This document shows positions 2,166 through 22,279 of a DNA stretch of 64,000 bases, piece by piece. Origin of the DNA: a phage. Under the pieces are notes generated by a model. The model ran no database searches. It was not told the DNA's origin and saw only the letters and a program-made list of their open reading frames with translations. Within the stretch, counting starts at the first letter, position 1, and each line of letters opens with the position of its first letter. Location: the sequence record PZ019085.1; one strand, written 5' to 3'. The position numbers and the translations under genes were made by a program.

Positions 2166-2426
2166 ATGAAAATGTATCAAGAATTTATCGCTGAAGCAGA
2201 TGACAAAGGTCCTAAATTTAAAGTTAAAGCTTTCATTGGTGATGCGGAAGACTTTGGCTCATTAAAACGTAATGGGTATTTTTTCTTAGGTGGCGATGGT
2301 AAAGAAATCAACACCTATGCAAAACGTAGTGAAATTGCTTATGTTGTAGCAAGCCCTAAAGTAGATGTTGACGATATTGGATACGATTTTAACAACTTCG
2401 GAATTATTTCTGGCGGTAAAGCTTAA
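2166..2426 (+). CDS. Internal protein (capsid-targeting leader MKMYQEFIAE)
   Basis: Leader motif; located in the ip locus next to denV. Confidence 0.7.
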   Translation: MKMYQEFIAEADDKGPKFKVKAFIGDAEDFGSLKRNGYFFLGGDGKEINTYAKRSEIAYVVASPKVDVDDIGYDFNNFGIISGGKA

Positions 2427-2489
2427 ACGGTTTACGCTTAAGTATTAATATAGTATAATTACTCTATCAAAACAAACAAGGAAACAAAA

Positions 2490-2804
2490 ATGAAAACGTA
2501 TAAAGAATTTATTGCAGAATCCGCCAACCAACGCGTTGAAGGTGGTTATATTTGGATTGAACAAGTTGAGCCGCCGAGCCGCACTTCTACAGGTAAATGG
2601 AAAATTACTGTTGATGGTCCTGGCGGTAAACGTAGGACTCTTAAAGAAATTAACGGGTACTATGAAGAAGCTCTTTCGGATGCAGGAACTTACATGATGC
2701 AAATCATGATTAAAAACCCTGAAAACCGTTTTGCAGCTAAAGTCTTCCGCCGTATTGGTAATAAACTTTATGATGCATACTCTAAAAACTTCCCTAAAGA
2801 ATAA
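2490..2804 (+). CDS. Internal protein (capsid-targeting leader MKTYKEFIAE)
   Basis: Leader motif; own upstream promoter-like element. Confidence 0.7.
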   Translation: MKTYKEFIAESANQRVEGGYIWIEQVEPPSRTSTGKWKITVDGPGGKRRTLKEINGYYEEALSDAGTYMMQIMIKNPENRFAAKVFRRIGNKLYDAYSKNFPKE

Positions 2805-2829
2805 CATAAATTAAAACAATAGGAACAAA

Positions 2830-3159
2830 ATGAAAACATATCAAGAGTTTATCACTGAAGTTACATTATCTGCGGAACAGAAAGCTGCTATCGAAGAAGG
2901 TAAAAATCCCAAAGTAACATATAAAGTAAATAGTAAAGGCGTTTTTGATGACTTGGTTCAAGACCCTGAATTGAAAAAGGCTCTTTCTAAAACTAATGCG
3001 TACTTTGCTCCTAAATTTAACACAGCCGGTGTACTTATTGGATTGGATGTATTCAACTCTAAAGGTGTTCTATCTAATGCCTTTGGTTATGCCGCTAACA
3101 AAATTACCAAAGCCGCATGGGAATCCAATACTAAACAAGCTCAAAAGCCTAGAGTATAA
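2830..3159 (+). CDS. Internal protein (capsid-targeting leader MKTYQEFITE)
   Basis: Leader motif. Confidence 0.7.
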   Translation: MKTYQEFITEVTLSAEQKAAIEEGKNPKVTYKVNSKGVFDDLVQDPELKKALSKTNAYFAPKFNTAGVLIGLDVFNSKGVLSNAFGYAANKITKAAWESNTKQAQKPRV

Positions 3160-3871: not shown

Positions 3872-4176
3872 TGACCACTATTGAAGTTTTTGAATATTGT
3901 TATAATAGCCAAGTATGCAATAAAAGGGCCCTTGTAGAAAATTACGAGATTTACCATTTTAAACCTAAACGATATCGTTTGACTAAAGGTCCGTTCGCAG
4001 GGCAGCAGGTTCTTTGTACTGCTCCTAATGCACGGTTGATGACTAGTATTCCGCATTTCAAAATGGAATTTATTGATGGACCATTTAAGGGATTAATCAC
4101 TCAAAGTTTAATGGCGTTTAATTCCGACCCATTTTTGATTAAAGAAAAAACTTGGATAAATTTATTTTCTAATTGA
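3868..4176 (+). CDS. Hypothetical protein
   Basis: ORF track; ATG at 3868 overlaps the upstream stop. Confidence 0.45.
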   Translation: MMTTIEVFEYCYNSQVCNKRALVENYEIYHFKPKRYRLTKGPFAGQQVLCTAPNARLMTSIPHFKMEFIDGPFKGLITQSLMAFNSDPFLIKEKTWINLFSN

Positions 4177-4182
4177 GGTTAT

Positions 4183-4545
4183 ATGAAAGCATATCAAATT
4201 CTTGAAGGTGCACATAAAGGCACTATTTATTTTGAAGACGGTACTCAAGCTCGGATTATCGTCTCTAAGACTTTTAAAGAAGACGCTATTGTAGACCCGG
4301 AAATTTTCTACGGTTTGAATGCCCGTGAAATTGAAATTGAACATCAACCTAAAGTTAAAATTGAAGGTGGTCAACATCTGAACGTTAACGTTCTGCGTCG
4401 CGAAACTCTGGAAGATGCAGTTAAGCATCCTGAAAAATATCCGCAGCTGACCATCCGCGTATCCGGTTATGCAGTTCGCTTTAACTCTCTGACTCCGGAA
4501 CAGCAGCGCGACGTTATCGCTCGTACCTTTACTGAGAGTCTATAA
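4183..4545 (+). CDS. Autonomous glycyl-radical cofactor (GrcA/YfiD-like)
   Basis: C-terminal ~65 aa ([59 protein letters not shown]) matches E. coli GrcA with the RVSGY glycyl-radical motif; that half has GC-rich host-like codons. Confidence 0.85.
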
Positions 4546-19524: not shown

Positions 19525-19998
19525 ATGTTATTATCAGGCGCAAAATATAAAGAAGAAAAACAAAAATTTTATGACGCACAGAACGGTAAGTGTCCTATTT
19601 GCCACCGCGAATTAGACCCTGATGTTCAAGGTAACCATCTTGACCACGACCATGAATTAAACGGGCCAAAAGCCGGTAGAGTTCGTGGATTACTCTGTAA
19701 TCTGTGCAACGCAGCAGAAGGTCAAATGAAGCATAAGTTCAACCGTTCTGGTCTTAAAGGCCGTGATGTCAACTACCTAGAATGGCTTGAATCTCTTCTT
19801 GATTATTTGAAACAAGATTATTCTGATAATAATATCCATCCTAATTTTGTTCCAGACAAAACTAAAGAGTTCTCAAGACTAGGTAAAGATGAAATGATGG
19901 CTGAGATGCTTCAAAGAGGATTTGAATATAATGAATCTGACACTAAAACACAGTTAATAGCTTCATTCAAAAAGCAGCTTAGAAAGAGTTTAAAATGA
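19525..19998 (+). CDS. 49: Endonuclease VII (Holliday-junction resolvase)
   Basis: MLLSGAKYKEEKQKFYDAQNGKCPICHRELDPDVQGNHLDHDHELNGPKAG... matches T4 gp49. Confidence 0.95.
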   Translation: MLLSGAKYKEEKQKFYDAQNGKCPICHRELDPDVQGNHLDHDHELNGPKAGRVRGLLCNLCNAAEGQMKHKFNRSGLKGRDVNYLEWLESLLDYLKQDYSDNNIHPNFVPDKTKEFSRLGKDEMMAEMLQRGFEYNESDTKTQLIASFKKQLRKSLK

Positions 19999-21812
19999 AA
20001 ATTGAAAAAGAAATTGAAGGATTAATTCATAAAACTAATAAAGATCTTTTGAACGAGAATGCTAATAAAGATTCTCGTGTTTTTCCAACTCAACGGGACC
20101 TTATGGCTGGTATTGTGTCTAAACACATTGCCAAAAATATGGTCCCGTCTTTTATTATGAAAGCGCATGAAAGCGGAATTATCCATTTCCACGATATTGA
20201 TTATTCCCCTGCTCTTCCATTTACTAATTGCTGTTTAGTAGATTTAAAAGGGATGCTTGAGAATGGATTTAAGCTTGGTAATGCGCAGATTGAAACTCCT
20301 AAATCAATCGGTGTTGCTACTGCAATTATGGCACAAATTACTGCACAGGTTGCTTCTCATCAATATGGTGGAACGACTTTTGCGAATGTAGATAAAGTAC
20401 TTTCTCCTTATGTTAAACGCACCTATGCAAAACATATCGAGGATGCAGAAAAATGGCAAATCGCCGATGCACCGAATTATGCTCAATCTAAAACAGAAAA
20501 AGACGTATACGATGCATTCCAAGCTTATGAATATGAAGTAAATACTCTCTTTAGTTCAAACGGGCAAACGCCTTTTGTAACAATTACATTTGGCACGGGA
20601 ACTGACTGGACTGAACGAATGATTCAGAAAGCAATTCTGAAAAATCGTATTAAAGGTCTTGGTCGTGATGGAATAACTCCTATTTTCCCTAAGCTTGTTA
20701 TGTTCGTCGAAGAAGGTGTTAATCTTTACAAAGACGATCCGAACTATGATATTAAGCAGCTTGCTCTAGAGTGCGCAAGCAAAAGGATGTATCCTGACAT
20801 TATTTCGGTTAAGAATAATAAAGCTATTACTGGTTCTTCAATTCCAGTTTCTCCAATGGGTTGCCGTAGTTTCTTGGGCGTATGGAAAGATTCGACTGGT
20901 AATGAAATTCTTGATGGACGTAATAATCTTGGTGTTGTAACGCTGAATCTTCCTCGAATTGCGTTAGATTCTTATATTGGAACACAATTTAACGAACAGA
21001 AATTTATTGAATTATTCAATGAACGTATGGATTTGTGTTTTGAAGCTTTGATGTGTAGAATTAGTTCTTTAAAAGGAGTTAAAGCAACTGTTGCTCCTAT
21101 TCTTTACCAAGAAGGTGCATTCGGGGTTCGTCTTAAACCGGATGATGATATAATTGAGTTATTTAAAAACGGTAGAAGTTCAGTGTCTTTGGGATACATT
21201 GGTATTCACGAATTGAATATTCTTGTCGGTCGTGATATTGGACAAGAAATTTTAACTAAAATGAATGCTCGTCTTAAGCAGTGGACCGAAAGAACCGGTT
21301 TTGCTTTTAGCTTGTATTCTACTCCTGCTGAAAACCTTTGCTATCGCTTCTGTAAACTTGATACTGAAAAATATGGAAGTGTAAAAGATGTTACTGATAA
21401 AGGATGGTACACTAATAGTTTCCATGTTTCAGTAGAAGAAAATATTACTCCGTTTGAAAAGATTTCTCGCGAAGCGCCATATCATTTCATTGCGACAGGC
21501 GGTCACATTTCTTATGTTGAACTTCCTGATATGAAAAATAACCTAAAAGGTCTTGAGGCTGTCTGGGATTATGCTGCACAACATTTAGATTATTTTGGTG
21601 TTAATATGCCAGTAGATAAATGTTTTACGTGTGGAAGTACCCATGAAATGACTCCGACTGAAAACGGATTTGTTTGTTCAGTTTGTGGAGAAACTGATCC
21701 TAAAAAGATGAACACAATAAGAAGAACATGCGGCTATTTGGGAAATCCGAACGAACGCGGATTTAATCTCGGTAAAAATAAAGAAATAATGCATAGGGTT
21801 AAACACCAATGA
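19995..21812 (+). CDS. nrdD: Anaerobic ribonucleoside-triphosphate reductase
   Basis: 605 aa; C-terminal glycyl-radical motif RRTCGYLG and Cys-rich zinc site; no intron interruption. Confidence 0.95.
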   Translation: MKIEKEIEGLIHKTNKDLLNENANKDSRVFPTQRDLMAGIVSKHIAKNMVPSFIMKAHESGIIHFHDIDYSPALPFTNCCLVDLKGMLENGFKLGNAQIETPKSIGVATAIMAQITAQVASHQYGGTTFANVDKVLSPYVKRTYAKHIEDAEKWQIADAPNYAQSKTEKDVYDAFQAYEYEVNTLFSSNGQTPFVTITFGTGTDWTERMIQKAILKNRIKGLGRDGITPIFPKLVMFVEEGVNLYKDDPNYDIKQLALECASKRMYPDIISVKNNKAITGSSIPVSPMGCRSFLGVWKDSTGNEILDGRNNLGVVTLNLPRIALDSYIGTQFNEQKFIELFNERMDLCFEALMCRISSLKGVKATVAPILYQEGAFGVRLKPDDDIIELFKNGRSSVSLGYIGIHELNILVGRDIGQEILTKMNARLKQWTERTGFAFSLYSTPAENLCYRFCKLDTEKYGSVKDVTDKGWYTNSFHVSVEENITPFEKISREAPYHFIATGGHISYVELPDMKNNLKGLEAVWDYAAQHLDYFGVNMPVDKCFTCGSTHEMTPTENGFVCSVCGETDPKKMNTIRRTCGYLGNPNERGFNLGKNKEIMHRVKHQ

Positions 21813-22279
21813 ATTATGATAGATTTTATCCTTGCGATTTTGTGAATGGCCCTGGTTGCAGGGTCGTTCTTTTCGTTACAGGTTGTTTGCATAAATGCGA
21901 AGGGTGTTATAATAAATCAACATGGAATGCTAGAAATGGTATTCCATTCACTAGTGAAACACTAGAACAATTAATTGAATGTTTGAATAATGATTATATA
22001 GAAGGATTAACTATAACTGGAGGAGACCCTCTTTATCCTGATAACAGAGACGTTATTCACTCTGTGATTCAAACTATTAAAAATCTTTATCCCAATAAAA
22101 GCATTTGGTTGTGGACAGGATATAAGTTTGAAGATATTAAACAACTAGAAATGCTTAAATATGTTGATGTTATTATTGATGGTAAGTATGAGAAAAATCT
22201 TCCGACCAAAAAGTTGTGGCGAGGATCAGATAATCAGCGACTTTGGTCAAATACCGATGGGGTGTGGAAACATGATTAA
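21809..22279 (+). CDS. nrdG: Anaerobic RNR activating enzyme (radical SAM)
   Basis: CLHKCEGC radical-SAM cysteine motif; directly follows nrdD. Confidence 0.9.
   Translation: MNYDRFYPCDFVNGPGCRVVLFVTGCLHKCEGCYNKSTWNARNGIPFTSETLEQLIECLNNDYIEGLTITGGDPLYPDNRDVIHSVIQTIKNLYPNKSIWLWTGYKFEDIKQLEMLKYVDVIIDGKYEKNLPTKKLWRGSDNQRLWSNTDGVWKHD

Follow-up and report, generated by a model that had tools for sequence, protein, structure and literature searches.

The stretch of phage DNA analysed in the current work (sequence record PZ019085.1; 64,000 nucleotides, referred to below as the window) carries at positions 4183-4545 of the plus strand one open reading frame (ORF), which with exactly these coordinates runs over 120 codons from ATG to TAA. 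Based on synteny with RB69 and on matches to Pfam and PHROG 1209, this ORF is assigned as vs.6 of an RB69-like phage (genus Mosigvirus) and as the orthologue of T4 vs.6/Y06I. In RB69, vs.6 carries the annotation 'autonomous glycyl radical cofactor GrcA' and is flanked by vs.7 and vs.5, the order being alike in T4, and the wider arrangement denV ... vs.8-vs.7-vs.6-vs.5-vs.4-regB is the same in the window, RB69 and T4. The DNA of vs.6 is ~98% identical to that of RB69, RB69-like phages (Mosigvirus) match the 1.1 kb around it at 98-99% identity, and the encoded protein shares 93% identity with T4 Vs.6.

The encoded polypeptide is a stand-alone protein of ~14 kDa (120 residues) with a C-terminal glycyl radical domain. 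The initial annotation of this stretch, made from its sequence, had described the gene as GrcA-like, and this description is confirmed by matches to Pfam Gly_radical (E=2e-18, residues 60-101), to the NCBIfam GrcA model and to E. coli YfiD/GrcA, which is the best solved relative (6OWR; E=2e-42 with HMMER, residues 21-120 aligned to YfiD 27-127). Vs.6 furthermore matches PHROG 1209 over its full length (9.1e-63, residues 1-120 against profile positions 1-121), and this similarity, which includes the phage-type N-terminus, places it in the T4-like vs.6 group.

The relationship between vs.6 and the host gene was examined in a codon alignment with grcA of E. coli ER1709. Over codons 61-120 the two proteins are 100% identical and 6/180 bases differ, all of them synonymously and three of them in the final three codons, and among the 60 N-terminal residues of the phage protein only ~18 agree with GrcA. 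The near-identity to GrcA that had been pointed out for the C-terminal ~65 codons thus stands, with 60 codons as the corrected length, and the nucleotide alignment that had been proposed as its check shows the near-identity to extend to the DNA of the 3' half. The gene falls into a phage-type 5' segment (4183..4360, plus strand; codons 1-59 plus base 1 of codon 60), which is the counterpart of the disordered YfiD N-terminus; a tract of 175 bases (4361..4535, plus strand; gene nucleotides 179-353), interpreted here as host-derived and encoding the glycyl radical domain as far as RTFT; and the last three codons with the stop (4536..4545, plus strand), which read GAG AGT CTA TAA in the window and GAA AGC CTG TAA in the host. 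Judging from the alignment, these non-host codons are the right edge of the tract in the window phage. The tract differs from ER1709 grcA at 3/175 bases, all synonymous (CAT/CAC, CCT/CCG and CGC/CGT), and these three changes are private to the window when T4 and RB69 are compared.

The switch at the left edge is abrupt, as differences from E. coli amount to 19/42 at gene nucleotides 130-171, 4/9 at 172-180 and 3/175 at 179-353, and the 5' half differs from E. coli grcA at synonymous sites too. A BLAST alignment of vs.6 to E. coli covers gene nucleotides 133-363 only, with near-identity beginning at 179, so that likeness to the host at the nucleotide level does not extend over the whole gene. 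The same abrupt switch at the same position was found in 9/9 vs.6 genes of Tequatrovirus and Mosigvirus (the window, RB69, T4 and six IMG/VR contigs). The two parts have discordant nearest relatives, the 5' half resembling phage vs.6 and the 3' half grouping with Escherichia. Similarity to the C-terminal radical domain of PflB starts at approximately residue 57, no more than a few codons from the point at which nucleotide identity changes, which fits recombination having been possible only where phage and host were already alike.

Identity to bacterial grcA was then quantified over a segment of 171 bases (encoding EGGQ..RTFT) among 81 bacterial grcA loci, two further Klebsiella loci (~83 together) and many phages. 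From E. coli, the window differs at 3/171 bases, RB69 at 1/171, T4 at 2/171 and the six IMG/VR Tequatrovirus/Mosigvirus contigs at 1-3/171, and a second Escherichia species differs from E. coli at 3/171. Citrobacter (14/171), Klebsiella (23/171) and Salmonella (30/171) encode the same or nearly the same protein segment despite their 14-30 base differences, and bacterial grcA pairs from different named taxa show a median of 29 differences per 171 (5th percentile 19). The E. coli phage RB43, which has one amino-acid difference, differs from E. coli at 31/171, and the genes of Slopekvirus, Winklervirus-like, T5-like and jumbo phages differ from their nearest sampled bacterium at 24-49/171. In neighbour-joining bootstrap analysis, the Tequatrovirus and Mosigvirus tracts were placed with Escherichia in 97.5% of replicates, and in a related phage contig (L096) all 175 bases of the tract agree with grcA of E. 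coli strains living today (100.0% identity). When the 3' end of E. coli grcA was compared with phage records, a bimodal distribution was obtained (629 records at 95-99% identity, only 18 at 90-95% and all others under 90%), and the mosaic is thus not special to the window, the E. coli-like tract being present in 629 phage records. The tract of the window matches 5,426/5,426 complete E. coli genomes; for the remaining 63.8 kb of the window, no megablast match to these 5,426 genomes and no other host-like island was found.

A second phage-host pair shows the same arrangement with a different host. In Jiaodavirus, a genus of Klebsiella phages, a phage-type 5' half with a G+C content at third codon positions (GC3) of 0.20-0.28 is joined to a 3' half with a GC3 of 0.58-0.61, the left edge of the tract being the same as in the window, and the 3' end of Klebsiella grcA finds 62 phage records at 95-99% identity. 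Codons 61-114 of phage JD18 follow Klebsiella grcA except for four synonymous differences, the Klebsiella-specific Ser105 (TCG) included, and the 5' halves of JD18 and the window differ at 47/180 bases. JD18-type phages are 6-7/171 from Klebsiella grcA and 22-23/171 from E. coli, the former value having been obtained after Klebsiella loci and JD18-type phages were added to a bacterial sample which, without the K. pneumoniae complex, had given 14-20 differences. Bootstrap support for Jiaodavirus with Klebsiella is 80%. At the ~21 sites at which E. coli and Klebsiella grcA differ, each phage genus matches its own host, and these host-specific matches in two phage-host pairs rule out codon convergence and require at least two independent conversions.

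The composition of the gene changes in the same direction, with a GC3 of 0.233 in codons 1-60 and of 0.417 in codons 61-120. Values in 60-codon windows across the genome have a mean of 0.297 (standard deviation 0.068), so that the shift corresponds to ~1.8 standard deviations, and 36/592 windows (6%) reach 0.417; as a stand-alone test the GC3 shift was dropped, not being significant on its own. For comparison, the GC3 of the 3' half is 0.44 in E. coli grcA and 0.67 in Klebsiella grcA, and phage 5' halves have 0.2-0.28. In the 3' half of the window gene CTG accounts for 5/6 leucine codons and CGC for 4/6 arginine codons, compared with a background of 11% and 10%, respectively, in plus-strand ORFs of at least 120 codons of the window. 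Codon choice, and not GC3, is decisive for the host type of the 3' half. The host-type codons to which the initial annotation had drawn attention are therefore real, as is the GC3 shift, which is modest. Two outcomes had been named there as speaking against a host origin, namely nucleotide identity no higher than protein conservation would produce and uniform codon use; the identity was found to exceed that expectation, and codon use is not uniform across the gene.

It might be argued that no transfer took place and that purifying selection, combined with selection for codons optimal in the host or for an RNA feature, holds the 3' half identical to the host gene, since the protein of the radical domain is nearly invariant across bacteria and phages and grcA codons are typical of highly expressed genes. 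Yet identical or near-identical protein segments elsewhere still differ at 14-31/171 bases, and RB43 and Phi1 infect E. coli but differ from its grcA at ~17-24% of bases. Such constraint would also have to let the phages of E. coli and of Klebsiella each match their own host at ~21 synonymous sites, and the rest of the gene and genome is without such codon adaptation, no comparable host identity being present in 64 kb. This explanation is considered highly improbable.

In our best explanation, which is held at a probability of roughly 85%, vs.6 is an old phage gene for a grcA-type spare part, the radical-domain tract of which was replaced by host grcA through gene conversion, as opposed to capture of a whole gene. 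The sequence comparisons presented above show that positions 4361-4535 were exchanged for the corresponding bases of E. coli grcA, and the replacement is very recent, falling within present-day Escherichia diversity. The proposed mechanism would be homologous recombination (gene conversion) of host DNA with the phage genome during infection; the tract would be limited to the sole part of the gene in which phage and host were alike enough to recombine, and once converted it would be a better substrate for further conversion.

That the resident gene is old is indicated by an earlier comparison, in which vs.6 was one of 11 ORFs of unknown function kept in all T4-like genomes compared (PMC1524935). 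In addition, a consensus of 25 residues at the N-terminus is common to Tequatrovirus, Mosigvirus, Jiaodavirus, Slopekvirus, Pseudotevenvirus (RB43) and Winklervirus and is absent in bacteria. Given an old gene with a phage N-terminus shared across genera, a patch was therefore replaced inside a resident gene and no new gene was captured. The chimeric gene by recent host capture that had been suggested initially accordingly holds for the mosaic itself and for the recent, host-derived 3' half with its switch at approximately nucleotide 179, but not for the capture, which did not create the gene. A recent capture of the whole host grcA, followed by fast divergence of the 5' half and constraint on the 3' half, is very unlikely. 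Homology of the 5' half to GrcA is indeed still detectable (in the HMMER alignment, phage residues 21-120 pair with YfiD 27-127), and the disordered N-terminus of YfiD is likely to evolve fast; however, both halves would have had equal time to diverge, and the 5' half differs at synonymous as well as non-synonymous sites (19/42 just upstream of the switch), whereas only 3-6 differences fall in the 3' half. RB43, Slopekvirus and Winklervirus moreover combine the phage-type 5' half with a non-host-like 3' half, and it is joined to a Klebsiella-type 3' half in Klebsiella phages, and it is therefore older than the tract.

Identity alone gives no direction, and it is thus conceivable that the phage tract was copied into the chromosomes of E. 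coli and Klebsiella. Divergence of E. coli grcA from its relatives is, however, about equal in the two halves, as under vertical descent (5'/3' halves: 0.154/0.175 for Salmonella, 0.129/0.135 for Klebsiella and 0.020/0.018 for the second Escherichia species), from which it follows that the host gene was vertically inherited and that the phage is the recipient. The host codons in the tract also point from host to phage. Furthermore, all 5,426 E. coli genomes contain the tract, which has host-type codons and GC3, and phages nest inside Escherichia and beside Klebsiella, not bacteria inside phages, making reverse transfer extremely improbable. The probability that host reads were mis-assembled into the phage genome is close to negligible: host DNA is present in phage lysates, but 629 independently sequenced phage records (including T4, T2, RB9 and RB69) have the tract in frame at one and the same site, flanked by phage sequence and with lineage-specific single-base differences.

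With regard to function, the glycyl radical motif R92-V-S-G95-Y-A-V (4456..4476, plus strand) is identical to that of YfiD and of the PflB C-terminus, and the GGT codon of Gly95 (4465-4467, plus strand) is predicted to specify the radical site, which corresponds to Gly102 in YfiD and Gly734 in PflB; this assignment follows from established knowledge of pyruvate formate-lyase (PFL) and YfiD (PMC8683613, PMC13450708). In YfiD a disordered N-terminus precedes the C-terminal radical domain, and YfiD and T4 Y06I, once activated by the PFL-activating enzyme (PFL-AE), restore oxygen-cleaved PFL (PMC8683613, PMC13450708). T4 Y06I is an autonomous glycyl radical cofactor that restores oxygen-fragmented PFL in vitro, according to PMC8683613, which cites Wagner et al. 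2001. The rescue role which the initial annotation had assigned to the gene is thus one that the T4 orthologue performs in vitro and that the window protein would share by analogy. The radical domains of T4 Y06I and the window Vs.6 differ by one residue. Since the Vs.6 radical domain is identical to that of YfiD, we infer with high confidence that it would work by the YfiD/Y06I mechanism.

Under this mechanism, the PFL-AE of the host would install the radical on Gly95 of Vs.6, and the activated protein would dock on host PFL from which oxygen has cut off the radical domain, thereby restoring activity. The phage copy of the spare part would keep PFL running in a microaerobic host, and the presumed rationale for the phage to carry its own is that T4-like phages shut off host gene expression. 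Active PFL would supply acetyl-CoA (and ATP via acetate kinase) as well as formate, which would serve as reductant for the class III ribonucleotide reductase NrdD/NrdG. The genes of this anaerobic enzyme, nrdD and nrdG, had been reported for the same window and are indeed present, and this supply of formate would provide a biochemical reason for vs.6 to occur alongside them.

Several points weigh against the reading given above, either for the conversion or for the function attached to it. Conversion is not universal in T4-like phages of E. coli, Phi1 and RB43 being 75.9% and ~83% identical to grcA, and Salmonella did not provide a third replicate, as no phage record is >95% identical to the 3' end of Salmonella grcA. 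No recombination event was observed, the mechanism being deduced from sequence patterns. In the NCBIfam GrcA equivalog model (TIGR04365), Vs.6 scores 159.1 bits and lies below the cut-off of 170, compared with 234 for E. coli GrcA, because its N-terminal half is divergent; RefSeq names the RB69 and T4 proteins GrcA although the window Vs.6 scores below this cut-off. The test of function concerns T4 Y06I in vitro only and would apply to the window Vs.6 by analogy, and the link from formate to NrdD is our own proposal. We know of no in vivo phenotype for vs.6.

The tract of the E. coli phages may have arisen in one event or, as is more probable, in several. Several events are favoured by gene position 219, which is C or T within E. 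coli as well as within both phage genera (Tequatrovirus and Mosigvirus), but which could also be a recurrent transition. They are further favoured by the mix of host and phage bases in the last three codons, which varies, with AGC CTG host-like in OES_C-2, GAA host-like in T4 and GAG AGT CTA in the window, and by EP32a, among whose variants there is one that agrees with the allele of a different Escherichia. Common breakpoints were rejected as proof of a single event: the left edge, which the Klebsiella phages share, lies at the end of phage-host homology, and independent events would therefore stop there as well. As an alternative, a single conversion may have been followed by spread of the allele through phage-phage recombination, as is suggested by the vs.6 genes of T4 and the window, which are 92% identical in nucleotides (89% in the 5' half), compared with 62-80% for neighbouring genes. 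Synonymous-codon differences between T4 and the window are likewise 15% in vs.6 and 38-59% in the neighbouring genes.

This similarity to T4 forms an island at ~4030-4545, which takes in the 3' end of vs.7 and the whole of vs.6 and in which identity in 60-base windows is 83-98%, with flanking genes at ~62-80% and a sharp drop at the vs.6 stop. The island includes the phage-type 5' half, and host conversion alone does therefore not explain the similarity to T4; a recent whole-gene exchange between Tequatrovirus and Mosigvirus is suggested by this pattern. In Escherichia phage OES_C-2 (Tequatrovirus; L177, 327-683), vs.6 is two codons shorter in the 5' half, with ..REIETQPTVK.. in place of ..REIEIEPQPTVK.., and the right edge of its tract (host-like AGC CTG) differs from the edge in T4 and the window.

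A 167 kb contig (L119, IMG/VR UViG_2974754850) has at ~401-760 a Jiaodavirus-type vs.6 with a frameshift where its phage-type 5' half meets the host-like 3' half, which is either a sequencing error or a pseudogene. Residues 77 and 81 are Leu and Glu in Slopekvirus phiKp_16 (L088) and in Jiaodavirus (L084, L175), as in GrcA of Klebsiella and Salmonella, and Glu and Lys in GrcA of E. coli and in E. coli phages. The DNA of Slopekvirus phiKp_16 is not host-like (at least 26 differences) despite its Leu77/Glu81, and these two residues would reflect either selection for agreement with the protein of the host or an older conversion whose synonymous sites have since decayed. A stronger version of the proposal that the tract is repeatedly overwritten by host grcA, in which an exact match to host PFL and PFL-AE is under selection, is conceivable in view of Leu77/Glu81 in two Klebsiella phage genera.

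Within its neighbourhood, vs.6 is part of a run of genes on one and the same strand, vs.8-vs.7-vs.6-vs.5-vs.4, in which stops and starts abut or overlap. A Shine-Dalgarno-like motif, GAGG, can be read from the sequence at 4175..4178 (plus strand), 4 bases 5' of the ATG, where it overlaps the TGA stop of vs.7 (4174-4176), and the TAA of vs.6 and the ATG of vs.5 overlap by 1 base. A scan for promoters and terminators around vs.6 gave no signal above chance. The anaerobic reductase genes lie further downstream, where endonuclease VII (gp49, 19525-19998), nrdD (19995-21812) and nrdG (21809-22279) are consecutive with overlapping stops and starts, nrdD being one unbroken ORF of 605 codons. Upstream of vs.6, three adjoining small ORFs (2166, 2490 and 2830, spanning 2166-3159) start with a near-identical motif (MKMYQEFIAEA, MKTYKEFIAES and MKTYQEFITEV, respectively). 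According to the RB69 annotation, the ORF at 2166 (RB69p125) is an internal head protein and the counterparts of those at 2490 and 2830 are hypothetical, and their shared motif resembles the capsid-targeting leader of T4 internal proteins.

GrcA-like genes were also encountered in other replicons. The jumbo Serratia phage BF (L092, 425-1347) has one two genes upstream of a gene that is annotated as anaerobic ribonucleotide reductase small subunit, and the T5-like phage DT571/2 (L091, 420-788) has one as well; no host-identical tract was found in either gene. Eight IMG/VR contigs (L111-L116, L131 and L133; ~85-154 kb, with L112 and L116 at 32-42 kb) carry a GrcA-like gene with a more bacterial-looking N-terminus (..SGSIWLIE..), the 3' segment of which is nearest to Haemophilus parainfluenzae in L111-L114, L131 and L133 (24-31/171) and to Pantoea in L115 and L116 (33). 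Judging from these sequences, spare-part genes may occur in Pasteurellaceae phages too. On the bacterial side, a copy of grcA is present on a 276 kb plasmid (L026, Klebsiella sp. WOUb02 plasmid unnamed4), and a locus labelled 'Vagococcus sp. WN89Y' (L034), a Gram-positive genus, has a grcA of enterobacterial, Klebsiella-cluster type, which suggests contamination or a mislabelled assembly.

The gene and its function are already known, as the T4 orthologue was characterised in 2001 and RefSeq carries the GrcA annotation. No earlier description of the conversion pattern was found in the searchable literature; a prior mention is possible, and no priority is claimed. The value of the case lies in the evolutionary pattern, an unusually clean instance of natural recombination between a virulent phage and a host chromosome, with a defined tract, a known direction and a replicate in a second pair. 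Whether the radical-domain tract is repeatedly overwritten by grcA of the current host genus is, in our judgement, evenly balanced. If it is, strictly lytic T4-like phages that degrade host DNA would still undergo ongoing host-to-phage conversion, and the ~175-base tract would be a record of the recent host genus (Escherichia or Klebsiella type) for isolates and metagenomic contigs. The object itself is ordinary, but it offers an experimentally tractable case of gene conversion from a host to a lytic phage, and it makes testable the rate at which lytic phages copy host DNA, the use of the tract as a host-genus marker and the residue-level match to PFL and its activase.

Among known systems, the closest are vs.6/Y06I of T4 and vs.6 of RB69, which are the same gene with 120 residues, the same position between vs.7 and vs.5, the mosaic in common and few substitutions. 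E. coli GrcA/YfiD (6OWR) is of similar size and has the same two-part architecture, and its C-terminal 60 residues are identical, RVSGYAV included, so that by analogy Vs.6 very probably acts in the same way; its N-terminal part differs, the 60 N-terminal residues of the phage protein being ~30% identical, 7 residues shorter and of a phage-specific consensus. The GrcA-like genes of T5-like phages, of Serratia phage BF and Erwinia jumbo phages, of RB43 and of Slopekvirus encode the same kind of protein and bear no sign of recent conversion, their 3' halves being 25-49/171 away from every bacterial grcA sampled. The psbA gene of cyanophages is a host-derived auxiliary metabolic gene of virulent phages that swaps segments with the host gene, and vs.6 resembles it in being a host-type metabolic gene of a lytic phage in which patches are exchanged by intragenic recombination. 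Unlike in psbA, the patch in vs.6 is short (~175 bases), lies inside an old phage gene, reaches 100% identity to alleles of living hosts, and is host-genus-specific in two phage genera.

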